From assembly GCA_965263035.1 (NCBI GenBank), contig OZ253580.1:6048001-6112000 (forward strand): a DNA stretch of 64,000 bases, read 5' to 3'. The notes beneath the pieces were generated by a model. It made no database searches. It saw only the letters and a program-made list of their open reading frames with translations, and was not told where the DNA came from. The position numbers were made by a program, and so were the translations under genes. Of the stretch, positions 18,578 through 24,089 are shown in pieces; within the stretch, counting starts at the first letter, position 1, and the number at the start of each line of letters is the position of its first letter. The DNA is from Acidobacteriota bacterium. GTDB lineage: Bacteria > Acidobacteriota > UBA6911 > RPQK01 > JAJDTT01.

Positions 18578-19162
18578 TCAGTCCGACTCCAGCAGGCCGG
18601 CCGCTTCCAGTGGACGCCAAAAGGCGTAGTCGGCATGGTGGACGATGGTCACGTGTAGAGAACGGCGGACCAGCTCGCCCTCGCCCGAGTGGCAACCGGC
18701 GGCGTGGCAGACTTCCTCGGGAAGCCCCACCACCAGGCAAACGTGAGTTCCGTACTGGGGATGGCGGATGGGGGGCCAGCCCGAGGCGGCGGGCCGGCTG
18801 CTCCAGCGCTTCTGTCGCGGAGGATCGAACTCGTAGGGCTTGCCCACATCATGGCAGAGTGCGCAAGCGGCCAGCAGGTCCCGATCGATGGGGAGCTGGG
18901 GAAACTGTTCCTTGAGCGTGTCGGCCAAGGCCAGCGCCAGTCGGGTCACACCCCGGATGTGGTCGGTCTGGGTGCCCCCCTTCAGCGTGGGCGTGTCGGG
19001 ATTGCCCGAGGGGCGAATCTCGTCGATGGACTGGAAGGTACTCTGGCCCAGGCAGTAGGCCCAGGCGTCCACCACCAGATTACGGAGTTCTTCGTCCTTG
19101 ATCTCCGACAACTCGGGAAGAGATTTTCGGACCGATTCGCGCAGGTCCTCACGTATTTCCAT
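18578..19162 (-). CDS. HD domain phosphohydrolase
   Basis: DHIRGV..LCHDVGK..RH..CHS..HHAD. Confidence 0.8.
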   Translation of the reverse strand: MEIREDLRESVRKSLPELSEIKDEELRNLVVDAWAYCLGQSTFQSIDEIRPSGNPDTPTLKGGTQTDHIRGVTRLALALADTLKEQFPQLPIDRDLLAACALCHDVGKPYEFDPPRQKRWSSRPAASGWPPIRHPQYGTHVCLVVGLPEEVCHAAGCHSGEGELVRRSLHVTIVHHADYAFWRPLEAAGLLESD

Positions 19163-19252
19163 GGCCTCACCCCCAGTGCGGTCAAGCTATCCCCCACCCC
19201 GGGGGGTGTCAAGTCGGGACGCCCCTGGTGGGCGCCCTCGTTCGTCTTGAAA

Positions 19253-19438
19253 GGAGGGGCGATTTCCAGTCGCCCTCTTCCACCCCTGCCCCAGACTCAC
19301 TCCGGTGTCGGCGGGAGGGGTGATTTCCAATCGCCCTCTTCCACCCCTGCCCACAAACTCACCCCGGTGTCGGCGGGAGGGGTGATTTCCAATCGCCCTC
19401 TTCCACCCCTGCCCACAAACTCACCCCGGTGTCGGCGG
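19253..19438. repeat. Three tandem 61-62 bp repeats, each containing a REP-type hairpin
   Basis: Unit GGAGGGG(C/T)GATTTCCA(G/A)TCGCCCTCTTCCACCCCTGCCC..ACTCAC(T/C)CCGGTGTCGGCG at about 19253, 19314 and 19376. Confidence 0.85.
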
Positions 19439-19490
19439 CTAGAAACCGCCGCTCCCATTCGGCGGCTGGAAACCGCCGCTTGTCTGTTTA

Positions 19491-19660
19491 AATGGGGCCG
19501 TCCGGGTCGCTCATGAGCGACCCGGACGGCGGTGGCTGGACCGTACCGCCGCGGACTGTTACGAACCGTATGGGAGTGAGGTCGGCCACCGTCTTTCCCG
19601 ATGTCCTGAATGGATACGAGGGCATCAAGGCCCGAATGACAAGCACAGGAGACAGGAAAG
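19491..19660 (+). ncRNA. IS110 bridge RNA (5' hairpin, target-binding loop, donor-binding loop)
   Basis: Hairpin GCCGTCCGGGTCGCTC-AT-GAGCGACCCGGACGGC. Target loop holds ACCGCCGC (19545-52) and ATGGGAG (19570-76); donor loop holds ATGGATAC (19610-17) and GACAAG (19638-43). Confidence 0.85.
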
Positions 19661-20608
19661 ATGAAACAGCATACCGTAGGCATCGACATCTCGAAAGCGC
19701 ACCTGGACGCGCACCGGCTGGCCGACGGCCATTCCGCCCAGTTCGACAATGACCCGGCCGGCTTCCGGGCGCTGATTGATTGGATCGGAACTCCGGTCGA
19801 GTGCGTCGCGTACGAGGCCACCGGTCCCTACCACCGGGACCTCGAGGAAGCGCTGTCCAAAGCGAAGCTGCCGCTGGCGAAGGTGAACCCCTGGCAGGCG
19901 CGGCGCTTCGCCGAGGCGACCGGGAGCCGCGCCAAGACCGACGCCGTAGACGCTCGGAAACTGGCCCAGCTGGCCGCCACGCTGGAGCCGCGCCGGACCC
20001 AGGTGCCGTCCAAAACGCAACGCCGGCTCCAGGATCTGCAGACGTCCCGGGACGCGCTGATGCGCCAGCGCACGGCCGCGCTCAACCGCCGCCGACAGCT
20101 CCGCGAACCCCTGCTCAAACAGCAGAACCAGATCCAGATCAACATGTTCGAGCGCCACCTGCGCGCCATCGACCGCAAAATGCAGCAGCTGATTGCGGCC
20201 GACGAGGCGCGGGCCCGCAAGTTGGAGATCCTCACCTCCATCCCGGGGATCGCGGCCACCACCGCCGCCGGTCTGCTGGCCGAGATGCCCGAGCTGGGCG
20301 CCCTCAGCGGCAAGGCCGCCGCCAGTCTGGCCGGGTTGGCCGCCGTTCCGCGCGAGTCGGGGGCTTGGCAGGGCCGGGCCTTCATCCGGGGCGGACGGGC
20401 GCGGGCGCGACGGCTCCTGTACATGCCGGCGGTGGCCGCCCTGCGTTGGAACCCCGACTTGGCCGAGGTGTACCGGAGGCTGAGCGAGCGCGGCAAGCCC
20501 GGCAAGGTGGCCCTCGTCGCCGTCATGCGCAAGCTTATCGTCCTGGCCAACACCCTCGTCCGGCAGGACCGCACCTGGTTGCCCGTAGCGCCCCGAGCGA
20601 CCTTCTGA
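19661..20608 (+). CDS. IS110 family transposase/recombinase (DEDD RuvC-like plus Tnp20 domain)
   Basis: VGIDISK, YEATG, AKTDAVDA, SIPGIA, LAGLAAVPRESG, GGRARAR..LYM, KVALVAVMRKL. Confidence 0.95.
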   Translation: MKQHTVGIDISKAHLDAHRLADGHSAQFDNDPAGFRALIDWIGTPVECVAYEATGPYHRDLEEALSKAKLPLAKVNPWQARRFAEATGSRAKTDAVDARKLAQLAATLEPRRTQVPSKTQRRLQDLQTSRDALMRQRTAALNRRRQLREPLLKQQNQIQINMFERHLRAIDRKMQQLIAADEARARKLEILTSIPGIAATTAAGLLAEMPELGALSGKAAASLAGLAAVPRESGAWQGRAFIRGGRARARRLLYMPAVAALRWNPDLAEVYRRLSERGKPGKVALVAVMRKLIVLANTLVRQDRTWLPVAPRATF

Positions 20609-21092
20609 GGCCACGGAGAAACCCCGTGAGGAAAGGGAGCGTGTGGACCCCCTGATGGCCGTCTGTCGAACTTCCGGTCAAGTCTGGCCGGAAGCTTGCT
20701 TACGGCCATGAAAGCTCTTCACGCCCTGGGGAGCGCCGGGTCACCCGAAGGGTCGCAGCGAAGCGGAGGAGCCGGAGGCTTGACCCGACGCTCCCCAGGG
20801 CGTATCCGGACCTCCCGGAGGACTGACGTCGACGATCTCAGGTCCCTCGATCCAGTTATCGGTCCACTCATCGCCCCCTGCACGGCGCCCGGCGGATCCA
20901 GCTCGATCTCCGCCTCACCTCCGGCGGAAGAACGCTCCTCCTAACCCTGTGCCCTTTGGACCGGACAGATCACGTACTAACGACACGGGATGGAAACACC
21001 GATTAGCACCCACCACTTGCAACATGGATACTCCCGTTCGGCGTTTGGAAAACCGCCGCTCCCAAGGAGATTGCCGTATTCTGGGACCGGTA

Positions 21093-24089
21093 ATGCTCCG
21101 ATTACGAGACCTCTTCCTGGTTTTGATCTGGCCCGTGCTGGGCCTGGCCTGCCATTTGGCGCCGGACACGGGCATCAACAACACCGACCTGGAGTTCGCC
21201 CTGGCGGGCCCGTTTCAGTTGGACACCATCGCCTCCGAGCCGGAGATCCGGCAACCGCTGTACATGACCTTCGACGAACGGGGGCGGATCTGGGTGGTTC
21301 AGTATCTCCAGTATCCCTTCCCCGCCGGCTTGAAGGTCGTTTCCCATGACCGCTTCTGGCGCGTCCAATACGACCGCTTTCCGCCCCCGCCGCCACCCGG
21401 CCATATCCCGGGCCGGGACCGGGTCACCATCCTGGAAGACCGGGACGGCGACGGCCGCTACGAGACTCAGAAGGACTTCGTCACTGGACTGAACATCTGC
21501 AGCGCGGCACTGCCCGGGCGCGGCGGCGTCTGGGTGCTGAATCCCCCGTATCTGCTCTTCTACCCGGACGCGGACCGGGACGACGTGCCCGACGGCCCCC
21601 CTGCGGTGCACCTGGAAGGCTTCGGCCTGGAGGACCTCCACTCCGTCTCCAACAGCCTGCTCTGGGGACCGGACGGCTGGCTCTACGGCTGCACCGGAAG
21701 CACCACCACGGCCACCATCCGCCACCCCGGCAAGGAGGGGCCGGGGCTCCACTTCAAGGGACAATCCATCTGGCGCTACCATCCCGGGAAACAGATCTTC
21801 GAGCTCTTCGCCGAGGGCGGGTACAACAATTTCGGCCTCGCCATGGACGCCAAGGGACGACTCTATACCGGCACCAATGGAAGCCTCATCGGCGTCCACT
21901 ACGTTCAAGGGGGCTACTATCGAAAGACCTGGGGCAAGCACGGCCCCCTGACCAACCCGTATGCCTTTGGTTTCTTTCCGGCCATGGAGGATCACAGCAG
22001 CAAGGCGAGGCTCTCCCAGGCCATGATCGTCTACGACGGGGGACAACTGCCCGACGCCTACGAGGGCACGCTGATCACCGCCCGGGTGCTTCGGCGACGC
22101 CTCGACGTTTGCGACCTGGAGAGCCGGGGCTCCACCTATGCCGCTCGCGAACGGGAAACCATCCTCTCCAGCCCCGACGTTCACTTCCGGCCCGTCGACC
22201 TGAAGGCAGGCCCGGACGGCGCCATCTACATTGCGGACTGGTACGACCGGAACGTGACCTGGAACGTCTCCGCCGAGAACGACGGGACCGACCGGTCCAC
22301 CGGACGAATCTACCGCCTCGGCCGCACCGGAACGGCACCCGCCGAGCCCTTCGACCTGAGCCTCCTTTCCGGACCGGAGCTCGTCGACCTCCTGTTGACG
22401 GACAACAAATGGCAGCGGCAGATGGCCCAGCGTCTGCTTCGCGAGCGGAAAGACGCTTCCCTGATCCCGCGTCTGGAGAAGCTGCTGGCCACCAGCGCAG
22501 GACAGCCGGCCCTGGAGGCGCTCTGGGCCCTGGGTGCCAGCGGCGGTTTCAGTCTTGAATCGGCACTCCGTTCGCTGGACCACGCAGACCCCTTCGTCCG
22601 CATCTGGACGATCCGACTCCTGGGGGACGACGGAGAGCTGAATCCGCCCCTCCGAAAGAGATTGCAGGTTCTGGCCGCGGACGAGACGCACCCGCAGGTC
22701 CGCAGCCAACTGTCCTCCTCGGTGAAGCGGTTTCCGCTTGCCGACGCGCTTCCCGTCCTGAGCGTCCTCCTGGAAAAATCAGAGGACCTTGCGGACCCGC
22801 ACATCCCGTTGCTGCTCTGGTGGGCCGTGGAGGCGAAACTGCGAGAGGGACCGAATGAGGTGCTGCACTGGGTGCGGCAGCAGATCCCGGCGGCGACGCC
22901 CCTCATGAATCAGGTCATCCTTCCTCGATTGGGACAGCGCTTCACCGTGGAGAGGAACCGAGAGGATCTCGTGACCTGTCACCGGTTGCTGGAACTCGAG
23001 TTGACGCCGGAACAGGTGCGGAGCCTGGCCCAGGGGATGATTCAGGGCCTGAGGGGCGCTCCGCTCGATCGCTGTCCTCCCCGGCTGCTTCGGAAGGTGG
23101 AGCAACTCTCGTCCCGCCTGCCTTCGGAATCCGCGCTGCTGGATCTGGCGATCCGTTTGGGAAGTGCCATGGCCGTCGAGCGTGTTCTGGCACGGTTCGA
23201 AGATCCCTCCCTCACGGAGGAATCCCGAATCGCCTTCATCCACACGCTGGCCGAATGCCGCATCGGCGGGGGGCTGGACCTGCTTTTGGACAGCTTCCGG
23301 CACGGCGCTTCCCCGGAGATCCGTGCGGAGGCTCTGGGGGCGCTGCACGACTTCCCGGAGGAGCGCGTCGCCCACAGCTTGCTGGAGTACTTCCCGGACA
23401 CCGATGCGGAACTTCGGCCCAAGCTCCTTCACCTGCTGGCCTCGCGAGTCTCGTGGGCCCGGCTGCTGCTGGATCGGATCGACTCCGCCCTGATCCCGGA
23501 GACTGCCGCGTCCCGGGGCCTATTGGTTCGAATCGCGAGTCTGGAGGACGAGGAAATCAACCGGCGGCTCTATGGGCGATGGGGCCGAATTCGCCAGAAT
23601 CCCCAAGAGAAGCTGGCCCGGATGTCGGCCGTCCGTTCCATGCTGACACGGGGCCGGAGGTCGTCCGAACTGGGTGCGGACCTCTTCCGAGAACTCTGCT
23701 CCAGCTGTCATCGCTTTCGAGGCGTGGGCACCCAGGTCGGGCCGGACCTCACGCAGATCGATGGCATGGAGCGAGACGCCCTGATGGAAGCCATCGTGGA
23801 CCCGGGAAGCTCCATCCTTCCCGACTTCATGGGATTTGTCCTGACCGTGGACAGGGACGGGACCGGCGCCGAACCTCAGCTCCTGGAGGGCCTGGTGCTG
23901 GAGGAGAACCCGCGCACCACCACTATCGTCGACTCGTCGGGCAGCCAGATTCAGGTGCCCAGCCCCGCCATCCTCCACAAGGAGGCCATGCAGGAGTCGA
24001 TCATGCCCGACGGTCTGCTGCACAACCTGGACGAGGAGCAAATCAGGGACCTGTTCGCCTATCTCCGAGGTCGAGACGGACCCCAGTAG
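21093..24089 (+). CDS. PVC-type heme-binding CxxCH membrane-bound dehydrogenase domain protein
   Basis: ASEPEIRQPLYMTFDERGRIWV, WGPDGWLYG, FRPVDLKAGPDGAIYIADWY, HEAT-like middle region, CSSCH..GPDLT..SIMPDGL. Confidence 0.88.
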   Translation: MLRLRDLFLVLIWPVLGLACHLAPDTGINNTDLEFALAGPFQLDTIASEPEIRQPLYMTFDERGRIWVVQYLQYPFPAGLKVVSHDRFWRVQYDRFPPPPPPGHIPGRDRVTILEDRDGDGRYETQKDFVTGLNICSAALPGRGGVWVLNPPYLLFYPDADRDDVPDGPPAVHLEGFGLEDLHSVSNSLLWGPDGWLYGCTGSTTTATIRHPGKEGPGLHFKGQSIWRYHPGKQIFELFAEGGYNNFGLAMDAKGRLYTGTNGSLIGVHYVQGGYYRKTWGKHGPLTNPYAFGFFPAMEDHSSKARLSQAMIVYDGGQLPDAYEGTLITARVLRRRLDVCDLESRGSTYAARERETILSSPDVHFRPVDLKAGPDGAIYIADWYDRNVTWNVSAENDGTDRSTGRIYRLGRTGTAPAEPFDLSLLSGPELVDLLLTDNKWQRQMAQRLLRERKDASLIPRLEKLLATSAGQPALEALWALGASGGFSLESALRSLDHADPFVRIWTIRLLGDDGELNPPLRKRLQVLAADETHPQVRSQLSSSVKRFPLADALPVLSVLLEKSEDLADPHIPLLLWWAVEAKLREGPNEVLHWVRQQIPAATPLMNQVILPRLGQRFTVERNREDLVTCHRLLELELTPEQVRSLAQGMIQGLRGAPLDRCPPRLLRKVEQLSSRLPSESALLDLAIRLGSAMAVERVLARFEDPSLTEESRIAFIHTLAECRIGGGLDLLLDSFRHGASPEIRAEALGALHDFPEERVAHSLLEYFPDTDAELRPKLLHLLASRVSWARLLLDRIDSALIPETAASRGLLVRIASLEDEEINRRLYGRWGRIRQNPQEKLARMSAVRSMLTRGRRSSELGADLFRELCSSCHRFRGVGTQVGPDLTQIDGMERDALMEAIVDPGSSILPDFMGFVLTVDRDGTGAEPQLLEGLVLEENPRTTTIVDSSGSQIQVPSPAILHKEAMQESIMPDGLLHNLDEEQIRDLFAYLRGRDGPQ

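Follow-up and report, generated by a model that had tools for sequence, protein, structure and literature searches.

What directs an insertion sequence into the tail of one kind of hairpin repeat? This question is raised by an element of the IS110 group found in a stretch of 64,000 nucleotides (the window), for which the original prediction had proposed a bridge RNA programmed against the REP-like hairpins of the host. The bridge RNA system of IS621 from Escherichia coli serves as reference, as described in the accessible parts of Durrant 2024 (PMC11208160) and Hiraizumi 2024 (PMC11208158). Our analysis indicates that the locus is a complete IS110-group insertion sequence, which very probably works as IS621 does. 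Its left end would encode a bridge RNA of about 165 nt, consisting of a 5' hairpin, a target-binding loop and a donor-binding loop. The complex of this RNA with the recombinase would bring the RE-CT-LE circle, as donor, into pairing with REP tails of a single subtype (…ACCGCCG-CT-CCC…), and strand exchange at the CT core would insert the element without duplication. The features of the locus are as follows.

19445..19457, + strand: free matching site in the neighbouring REP unit
19460..19480, + strand: REP-like hairpin CGGCGG-CTGGAAA-CCGCCG and left CT core (19479-80), from the sequence and the REP census
19481..21030, + strand: IS110-group insertion sequence, 1550 bp, in the tail of the REP-like hairpin
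19488..19493, + strand: TTAAAT, candidate -10 half of a junction promoter that only the circular form would complete
19497..19530, + strand: 5' stem-loop of the predicted bridge RNA, 15 base pairs, from the fold
19531..19590, + strand: predicted target-binding loop with its closing stem, from the fold and the comparison of copies and relatives
19545-53, + strand: left target guide ACCGCCGCG, in the target loop
19566-76, + strand: right target guide CCGTATGGGAG, in the target loop
19593..19660, + strand: predicted donor-binding loop, from the fold and the comparison of relatives
19610-18, + strand: left donor guide ATGGATACG, in the donor loop
19638-43, + strand: right donor guide GACAAG, in the donor loop
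19661..20608, + strand: recombinase gene, 315 aa, with a DEDD RuvC-like domain and a Tnp domain carrying the catalytic Ser
20609..21030, + strand: right end, 422 nt, with a nested 130-nt hairpin repeat, TTGCAA and the left donor arm ATGGATA (21024-30)
21031..21041, + strand: right CT core (21031-32) and right target arm CTCCCGTTCGG
21052..21063, + strand: free matching site in the next REP unit

Boundaries, recombinase and REP target sites

The element is bordered by a CT core on both sides. It starts with TGTCTG from 19481 and ends with ATGGATA. When the flanks are rejoined without it, the left target arm ACCGCCG (19472-78) is followed by the core and the right arm as ACCGCCG-CT-CCCGT, which restores the REP tail of the 91 unoccupied sites. 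The placement of the element between two CT dinucleotides and the rejoined target were already part of the original prediction, and all its coordinates and strings were found in the sequence. No target duplication beyond the CT core was observed at either junction, showing that insertion was scarless. The REP-like hairpin together with the T-rich start of the element scored as terminator-like.

The recombinase is a member of a family already named by NCBIfam: it scores 208.2 bits (cut-off 140) against NF033542, 'IS110 family RNA-guided transposase', and it matches PF01548 with 81.5 bits (cut-off 29) and PF02371 with 68 bits (cut-off 21.3). Among solved structures, ISCro4 (PDB 9t56; E 1.7e-35) is the best match, with the same domain order and a likeness confined to the protein chain, followed by IS621 (E 3e-32); both matches span residues 3-299, nearly the full length. 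About one third of the residues aligned with IS621 are identical, as estimated by eye. Residues D9, E52, D94, D97 and S233 fall at the DEDD and Ser positions of IS621 in the alignment to chain 8wt6_A, assuming an offset of 2 residues in the chain numbering that was read from the alignment itself. The IS621 catalytic residues are given as D11, E60, D102, D105 and S241 in the available part of PMC11208158.

With 180 nt on the left and 422 nt on the right, the element shows the reverse of the long left and short right ends that are typical of the IS110 group without defining it. The right end is long because of the nested hairpin repeat (20686-20815, 130 nt), which is absent from three genomic copies and from the relatives. 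The length of this end is not conserved either: from about 420 nt in the present element it drops to about 155 nt in the Foliamicus relatives and to less than 20 nt in those from Alphaproteobacteria. For the loci L038, L039 and L089 of relatives, no left boundary was found within the fetched flank.

We then examined the REP nature of the target, which proved to be real as predicted: 182 hairpins of the form CGGCGN-loop-NCGCCG followed by CTCC were counted in the genome, compared to 2 when its sequence is reversed, and 33 pairs of neighbouring REPs lie less than 60 nt apart. The genome also encodes Y1 (RAYT-like) transposase, with two PF01797 matches above cut-off. The ACCGCCGCTCC motif is present 91 times, where base composition predicts about 12. 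It was also found at the three sites proposed as free targets, two of them on the + strand (19445 and 21052) and one on the - strand (1984).

A predicted two-loop RNA in the left end

Minimum free energy folding of 19481-19665 gave exactly the stems of the two-loop RNA that had been proposed for the left end. The fold is far more stable than chance (z = -5.8), none of 200 shuffled sequences being as stable. Behind the 5' stem-loop, the target loop is closed by GGTGGCTGGACC (19531-42) pairing with GGTCGGCCACC (19580-90). The donor loop has an outer stem (19593-98 with 19655-60), a closing stem formed by TCCTG (19604-08) and CAGGA (19646-50), and a distal hairpin at 19620-33.

Each loop contains one sense and one antisense guide. 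In the target loop, the left target arm and the core C are represented in sense by ACCGCCGC (19545-52), and the core and the right target arm (CT-CCCATxCGG) in antisense by the right target guide, which includes ATGGGAG (19570-76). The donor loop gives the right-end tip and the core C in sense as ATGGATAC (19610-17), and CT with the left-end tip TGTC in antisense as GACAAG. For the window copy, the left and right target guides match at 8/9 and 9/11 positions, and the left and right donor guides at 8/9 and 6/7. Each right guide pairs with the whole core (…AG). In this lineage, the two left guides have G or A and not U as their ninth base; these guides pair with the core C only, leaving the core T unpaired by them, unlike in IS621. 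A U occupies this position in the relatives L031, L045 and L047. The handshake bases are located at 19577-78 in the target loop and 19644-45 in the donor loop, with U19577 opposite donor A7 and C19644 opposite target G7. The guide strings and closing stems on which the original prediction relied are thus present letter for letter, and its comparison with IS621 is supported as well: the two-loop fold, both guide pairs, the handshake bases and the CT core match the IS621 definitions.

A search of 19000-21500 against Rfam 15, with E up to 10, returned nothing in the left end, only chance microRNA-like matches on hairpins. As no curated family matched, we built our own covariance model. It finds all 13 copies in the genome as well as relatives down to 44% protein identity, and the two-loop RNA is kept, with compensatory pair changes, in relatives whose recombinases are 44-94% identical. 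In an alignment of 19 sequences fitted to the covariance model itself (built from 7 sequences, 6 of them among the 19), the predicted stems are paired in 96.9% of cells, compared to 35-51% when the partners are slid, and 17 of the 41 stem pairs have changed on both sides, a value reached by none of 500 shuffles. The 5' stem-loop accounts for many of these changes (11 of its 15 pairs). This model-fitted alignment replaced a plain MAFFT alignment for the structure counts. RNAalifold on the plain alignment was dropped: it missed the target-loop closing stem, the Foliamicus and Alphaproteobacteria rows being one base out of register.

Guides and target sites in relatives and genomic copies

Guides were compared with flanks for 26 elements of 8 genomes. 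Between the left target guide and its own left arm and core, 7-9 of 9 positions agree (mean 8.19), whereas non-cognate pairs reach 5.45. The main types of this guide, ACCGCCGC, ACCGACGC, GTCGCCGCT, GCCCTCGCT and TTCGTGTCT, track their targets. The right target guide and the flanks agree likewise, on CTCCC in most lineages and, in that of the Alphaproteobacteria, on CTCACG. For the right donor guide, three types were observed (CTTGTC, CTTGTA and CTTATC), each in agreement with the tip of the left end. The left donor arm is invariant, so that the left donor guide matches it without variation in which covariation could appear. Just 3' of the right donor guide, C accompanies a G at target position 7, and A accompanies a T, the latter in the Alphaproteobacteria lineage. 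Just 3' of the right target guide, all 18 rows that can be aligned there have a U opposite donor A7, the 19th, a diverged module (L038:1005-1179), not being alignable in the target loop. Three guides (left target, right target and right donor) and one handshake base therefore covary with the flanks. We also considered a one-base bulge after position 4 of the right target guide; it fits L033 (10/10) but not the copies of the present genome, and it was rejected.

The genome carries 13 copies of the element, and two of the others are 100% identical to the window copy over 1550 bp. CT precedes the element in all 13 copies and follows it in all 12 that have an intact right end. The original prediction proposed to test whether all flanks match one target. 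The CT core is shared throughout; the site is …CCGCCG-CT in 10 copies and ACCGACG-CT in the other 3, with a matching change in the guide. Indeed, the left target guide has turned from ACCGCCGC to ACCGACGC, a C-to-A change, in exactly these 3 copies. They sit inside the end of an IS1182-family element, within its terminal 40 nt. Two of them, at 653131 and 3695502, resemble each other at 98.5% and their IS1182 hosts at only 88.7%, which points to at least two independent insertion events into IS1182.

The choice among REP sites was analysed in the same way. The ACCGCCG subtype holds 9 of the 10 REP insertions; unoccupied sites are spread over the subtypes as 64 ACCGCCG, 53 GCCGCCG and 50 GTCGCCG. 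At ACCGCCGCTCC sites, the match to the extended right target guide is 4.2/7 for occupied and 2.03/7 for unoccupied sites (permutation p = 0.001).

These sites bear on whether the RNA or the hairpin sets the target. ISPpu9 and ISPpu10 of Pseudomonas putida are reportedly multi-copy IS110 elements inserted at one position of REP-type stem-loops. For ISPpu10, the accessible part of a recent report describes the target stem-loop as a second layer of specificity (10.64898/2026.03.19.712850). The protein could likewise read the REP hairpin here, mainly by itself or by combining structure with pairing, the loop matches being secondary; 10 of the 13 copies do lie directly 3' of a GC-rich hairpin. We consider this reading possible but rather unlikely, as the 3 copies in the IS1182 end have no CGGCGG-N7-CCGCCG hairpin at their site and carry a guide base changed to match it, and the REP subtype used tracks the left target guide. 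The occupation of the matching ACCGACG-CT site by copies with a one-base guide variant suggests that specificity resides in the RNA. That the locus is a natural bridge system with a specificity of its own, as originally proposed, is thus supported by guides that change with the flanks both across lineages and within one genome.

Variation in the left end is highest inside the target loop, with 10 variable positions out of 37, compared to 4 out of 143 in the rest. In copy 2494775, a loop allele from one lineage is found on a backbone from another, which suggests that loops are exchanged between copies by recombination; its right flank matches its own right target guide at only 2 of 11 positions. 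In three copies, a G-to-C change in the right target guide creates a mismatch at the first position of the right arm, and 2 of these 3 have broken reading frames. The chances seem about even that bridge RNA reprogramming has here been caught within one genome, with 3 coexisting loop alleles, a C-to-A shift from REP to IS1182 and a target loop that acts as a swappable, fast-evolving cassette.

Expression, alternative readings and known systems

Joining the two ends would place TTGCAA (21017-22, the candidate -35) and TTAAAT 17 nt apart. The hexamers and their spacing across the joined RE-CT-LE were confirmed in the sequence, and the arrangement is kept in the Acidobacteriota and Foliamicus relatives. 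The candidate junction promoter is a moderate match: each hexamer agrees at 4 of 6 positions, and TTAAAT does not have the A at position 2 required by the scan. A promoter rebuilt at the joined ends would mean that the RNA and the recombinase are transcribed mainly from the excised form. We infer the expression, the circular form and the activity of the element from its sequence. In two studies, RNA libraries yielded contigs over the left end and the gene, such contigs being liable to contain DNA; uncovered parts of the element were not counted as evidence. One contig contains a joint that goes back from 21200 to 19432, with 40 letters on its shorter side; it was identified as REP sequence and not as a circle junction. 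The short contigs that cover 19492-19619 in run X17 are far deeper in words than the gene contig, which is a hint only, as contig depth cannot rank parts of a gene.

The copies might also be fossils of a past burst, the window copy being immobile and its RNA not made when integrated. The promoter scan of the integrated state detected no sigma-70-like site, no RE-to-LE junction was seen in the contigs of four runs (two RNA-library and two other), in which rare forms are dropped, and the frame is broken or truncated in 4 of the 13 copies. We nevertheless regard this as improbable. Three copies are identical over their whole length, the window frame is intact with its five catalytic residues, the full 315-aa frame is kept in 9 of the 13 copies, and the element is covered by RNA-library contigs. 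Moreover, the available part of PMC13626964 reports weak bridge RNA expression at integrated IS621 loci, so that weak expression in place would be normal for the family. It is hardly credible that the loop-flank matches are captured REP leftovers or chance and that the guide RNA, if any, lies in the long right end as in IS1111-like elements. A right end longer than the left is typical of IS1111 rather than IS110, according to the accessible part of PMC11208160, but its extra length here comes from a repeat missing in three copies and its size varies among relatives. In addition, the left-end structure and guides covary with the flanks, and a captured copy of the target would not give one sense and one antisense guide in each loop.

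An element working as IS621 does thus remains our preferred reading. Both share the DEDD plus Ser recombinase, the left-end bridge RNA with its 5' hairpin, target loop and donor loop, the CT core, left guides in sense and right guides in antisense, a handshake pair at position 7, natural targets in the tails of REP hairpins and, as a candidate here, a promoter whose halves meet when the ends are joined. Complementarity between the right target guide and the REP consensus extends over up to 10/11 nt here versus 4 nt in IS621, which might add a natural stringency absent in IS621. The long right end with its nested repeat and the target ACCGCCG-CT-CCC also set the element apart, as does its host: E. 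coli for IS621, a genome among Acidobacteriota-like MAG relatives here.

The original prediction rated the novelty of the locus too high, since the protein belongs to a named family and the architecture is already published (Durrant 2024, Hiraizumi 2024; PMC11208160 and PMC11208158, in their accessible parts), as is REP targeting. Our searches of the literature available to us (bridge RNA with Acidobacteria; IS110 with IS1182) returned no paper on this element. The known working of IS110 elements is unchanged by this find, which adds to the bridge recombinase family a natural orthologue of an uncultured lineage rich in GC. It is a candidate for a system in which the right target guide is longer, and it offers a clean natural case of retargeting. 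Its target, donor and handshake bases, with three natural guide alleles and their sites, form a ready-made test set for specificity. IS110-family elements of another subgroup, with the RNA in the right end, are said to land inside the end of another mobile element. They resemble the ACCGACG variant in this landing place, their host element not being of the IS1182 family.

Insertion site and recombinase

The element, an insertion sequence of the IS110 group, is bounded by CT dinucleotides:

19481-21030, + strand: element, starting with TGTCTGTTTAAAT and ending with TTGCAACATGGATA; CT at 19479-80 and 21031-32

On the left it is flanked by the 3' strand of the hairpin CGGCGG-CTGGAAA-CCGCCG, on the right the flank reads on as CCCGTTCGGCG, and rejoining the two flanks gives ACCGCCG-CT-CCCGT, the tail of the repeat unit. 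Unoccupied tails of this type are also present 34 nt upstream (19445) and 21 nt downstream (21052). The original prediction was of a bridge recombinase programmed against the REP hairpin tail. On re-reading the sequence, all the strings that it named were found in place; the finding is real and the interpretation correct, as judged from the genomic copies, the comparison of guides with flanks, the RNA structure and the protein family.

The sole long reading frame (19661-20608) encodes a protein of 315 residues, which matches PF01548 and PF02371 and passes the NCBIfam equivalog 'IS110 family RNA-guided transposase' with 208 bits (cut-off 140). Among solved structures, those of the ISCro4 and IS621 recombinases are closest, with an alignment that spans residues 3-299. 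As read off this alignment, D9, E52, D94, D97 and S233 correspond to D11, E60, D102, D105 and S241 of IS621, whose mutation abolishes recombination according to PMC11208158. The element belongs to a known, well-described kind, whose family is already named by a standard protein model.

The right end sets the element apart from IS621, as it is long owing to a nested 130-nt hairpin repeat (20686-20815, -73 kcal/mol). About 75 bp of this hairpin are absent from three genomic copies of the element, and solo or partial hairpins occur elsewhere, for example at 1959693-1959822 (90%) and 2981641-2981723 (95%) of G000, the whole host genome. A small palindromic repeat seems to have become part of the element here. 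Directly upstream of the host REP cluster, a 62-nt unit is repeated in tandem (19253-19438, 3.0 units, 96% matches), each unit ending in GGTGTCGGCG, which is similar to the REP stem. The REP hairpin and the T-rich start of the element (19460-19490) score as an intrinsic-terminator-like site, which could shield the integrated element against read-through transcription.

Predicted left-end RNA and its expression

At the level of sequence, the element combines an IS621-like recombinase with an RNA-shaped left end, whose two loops spell out the target as well as the joined ends of the element itself, with a CT core. Compared with shuffled sequences, the 180-nt left end has a much more stable fold (z = -5.8), with the predicted two-loop structure:

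19497-19530: 5' hairpin, 15 bp
19531-42 with 19580-90: closing stem of the first internal (target-binding) loop
19604-08 with 19646-50: closing stem of the second (donor-binding) loop
19593-98 with 19655-60: outer stem of the second loop
19620-33: small distal hairpin of the second loop

A covariance model with five helices was built from seven Acidobacteriota-type sequences, and 19 distinct matches were aligned to it. In this alignment 96.9% of cells are paired, against 35-51% with the partners slid, a fraction that is inflated because the rows were fitted to the model and include six of the seven sequences from which it was built. The compensatory counts are less affected: two-sided changes occur in 17 of 41 pairs, a value reached by 0 of 500 shuffles, and stem mainly from the Foliamicus and Alphaproteobacteria rows.

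In the donor-loop outer stem, CTTTCC (19593-19598) pairs with GGAAAG (19655-19660), the purine run directly before the start codon, and this pairing (helix 3) is kept in relatives. When the RNA folds, the ribosome-binding site of the recombinase gene could thus be masked. A second, diverged bridge-RNA-like module was found in two other Acidobacteriota MAGs (L038:1005-1179, L039:1056-1179, L089:1056-1179), 300-470 nt upstream of the regular one, with 33-50 bits against 172-185 bits for the latter. The left boundary of these elements lies outside the fetched flank; the module could be a nested old copy or belong to an enlarged element with two RNAs. The model had no match beside four copies of a second IS110-family transposase type (G000 4847789, 2456930, 3359813, 2038242), which has longer frames and scores 187-194 bits with NF033542.

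If it behaves as its family does, the element would excise as a circle, its RNA would begin near the 5' hairpin, and the recombinase-RNA complex would pair the circle junction with the REP tail, with strand exchange at the CT. A promoter scan detected no sigma-70-like site in the integrated state. Joining of the ends would set TTGCAA 17 nt upstream of TTAAAT, as predicted for a candidate junction promoter, but the match to a promoter is only moderate; Foliamicus relatives have a perfect TTGACA as -35. Both the left end and the gene are covered by contigs from the RNA libraries of two studies, and these contigs also carry loop variants, at 19562 and 19570, identical to those of the host genome; this shows presence in RNA libraries and not a defined transcript.

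Guide variants and target sites in the host genome

There are 13 copies of the element in the genome, a single contig of 6.2 Mb; two of the others are 100% identical to the window copy, and the covariance model recovers exactly the same 13. CT precedes the first base in 13 of 13 and follows the last base in all 12 with an intact right end. A common target for all copies had been expected: the CT core is indeed general and the left flank is …CCGCCG in 10 of 13 (nine of them ACCGCCG), but three lie at CACCGACG, followed by CT-CCCTA. Alignment of the left ends revealed ACCGACGC in place of ACCGCCGC in the first loop of exactly these three copies, a guide change that matches their flank. This tidy natural record of retargeting by single guide changes within one genome is the main addition of our analysis.

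An IS1182-family element of about 1.8 kb, whose transposase scores 402.6 bits against a cut-off of 270, contains the ACCGACG site 40 nt inside its left end and hosts the three ACCGACGC-guide copies:

G000 653131-654683 (locus L009)
G000 3695502-3696976 (L010/L016)
G000 1125872-1127343 (L012/L017)

Uninterrupted IS1182-family copies mostly read CACCGAAG-CT-CCTT there (4 copies), a mismatch to the guide. Identity between the elements at 653131 and 3695502 is 98.5%, but only 88.7% between their IS1182 hosts, so these insertions are not one event copied with the host; the copies at 3695502 and 1125872 could represent a single event. A right-end fragment 100% identical to the window copy (G000 4205115-4205364) adjoins another IS1182-family copy.

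Four copies form a second group, whose loop differs in its 3' half (…AAAAGGAG or …AAAAGCAG); those with readable flanks are located at CT-CCT… sites. Among the 13 copies, 10 of 37 positions vary inside the first loop, against 4 of 143 in the rest of the left end and 83 of 1083 in the rest of the first 1120 nt (Fisher p = 5e-4). The copy at G000 2494775-2496249 (L011) bears the …AAAAGCAG target-loop allele of one lineage on a backbone nearest the ACCGACG lineage (97.5%), and its right flank agrees with its own guide at just 2 of 11 positions. Recombination or a rearrangement of the flank may account for this.

Hairpins of the form CGGCGN-loop-NCGCCG followed by CTCC number 182 in the genome and 2 in the reversed sequence, with 33 neighbouring pairs within 60 nt. 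By a looser pattern, unoccupied REP units comprise ACCGCCG (64), GCCGCCG (53), GTCGCCG (50), ATCGCCG (15) and others (14). The ACCGCCG subtype, spelled by the guide, was taken in 9 of 10 REP insertions, which has a probability of ~6e-4 under proportional subtype use (binomial, hand arithmetic). Over positions 3-9 of the extended right guide, the five occupied ACCGCCGCTCC sites match at 4.2 of 7 positions and the 91 unoccupied ones at 2.03 (permutation p = 0.001), the occupied set being the reference-loop copies, without copy 1745803 (left arm GCCGCCG) and the variant-loop copies. The right target guide is complementary to the REP consensus CT-CCCATTCGG at 10 of 11 positions (copy 1856899), compared with 4 nt in IS621; according to Durrant et al., some orthologues have longer ones. 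Two Y1-transposase (PF01797) matches exceed the cut-off, one RAYT-like at G000 2482924-2483100, ~400 bp from the element copy 2483506-2485055, and one at G000 3478135-3478365; they are candidate makers of the REP family.

Guides and flanks in relatives

Scanning one genome per species gave relatives at 60 loci:

Acidobacteriota MAGs: 84-94% protein identity
Candidatus Foliamicus: 65-69% protein identity
one Alphaproteobacteria MAG: 37-44% protein identity
one Maritimibacter MAG fragment: 49% over 82 residues

Guides were compared with flanks in 26 elements (14 loci with readable ends and the 12 complete host-genome copies). When the nine bases that follow the 5' anchor of the first loop are set against each element's left flank plus CT, 7-9 of 9 positions agree in 26/26 (mean 8.19, against 5.45/9 for non-cognate pairings). 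The left target guides are of types ACCGCCGC, ACCGACGC, GTCGCCGCT, GCCCTCGCT (including two variants one or two bases different) and TTCGTGTCT, each next to a matching flank. Second-loop antisense guides GACAAG, TACAAG and GATAAG correspond to element starts TGTC, TGTA and TATC, while in the first loop …GGGAG accompanies CT-CCC flanks and CGTGAG accompanies CT-CACG flanks. The right-end tip ATGGATA is invariant among the 26 elements, so that its guide is consistent with it but there is no variation to probe the match. In this lineage the ninth position of each sense guide holds G or A, not U, unlike in IS621.

Read from sequence, the handshake positions of the element and its relatives fit the definition of Hiraizumi et al. 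The right donor guide is followed by C if target position 7 is G; the lineage with T at that position has A instead. Next to the right target guide stands U, opposite donor A7, in 18/18 aligned rows, the 19th (the diverged module L038:1005-1179), whose target loop is not alignable, standing outside this count.
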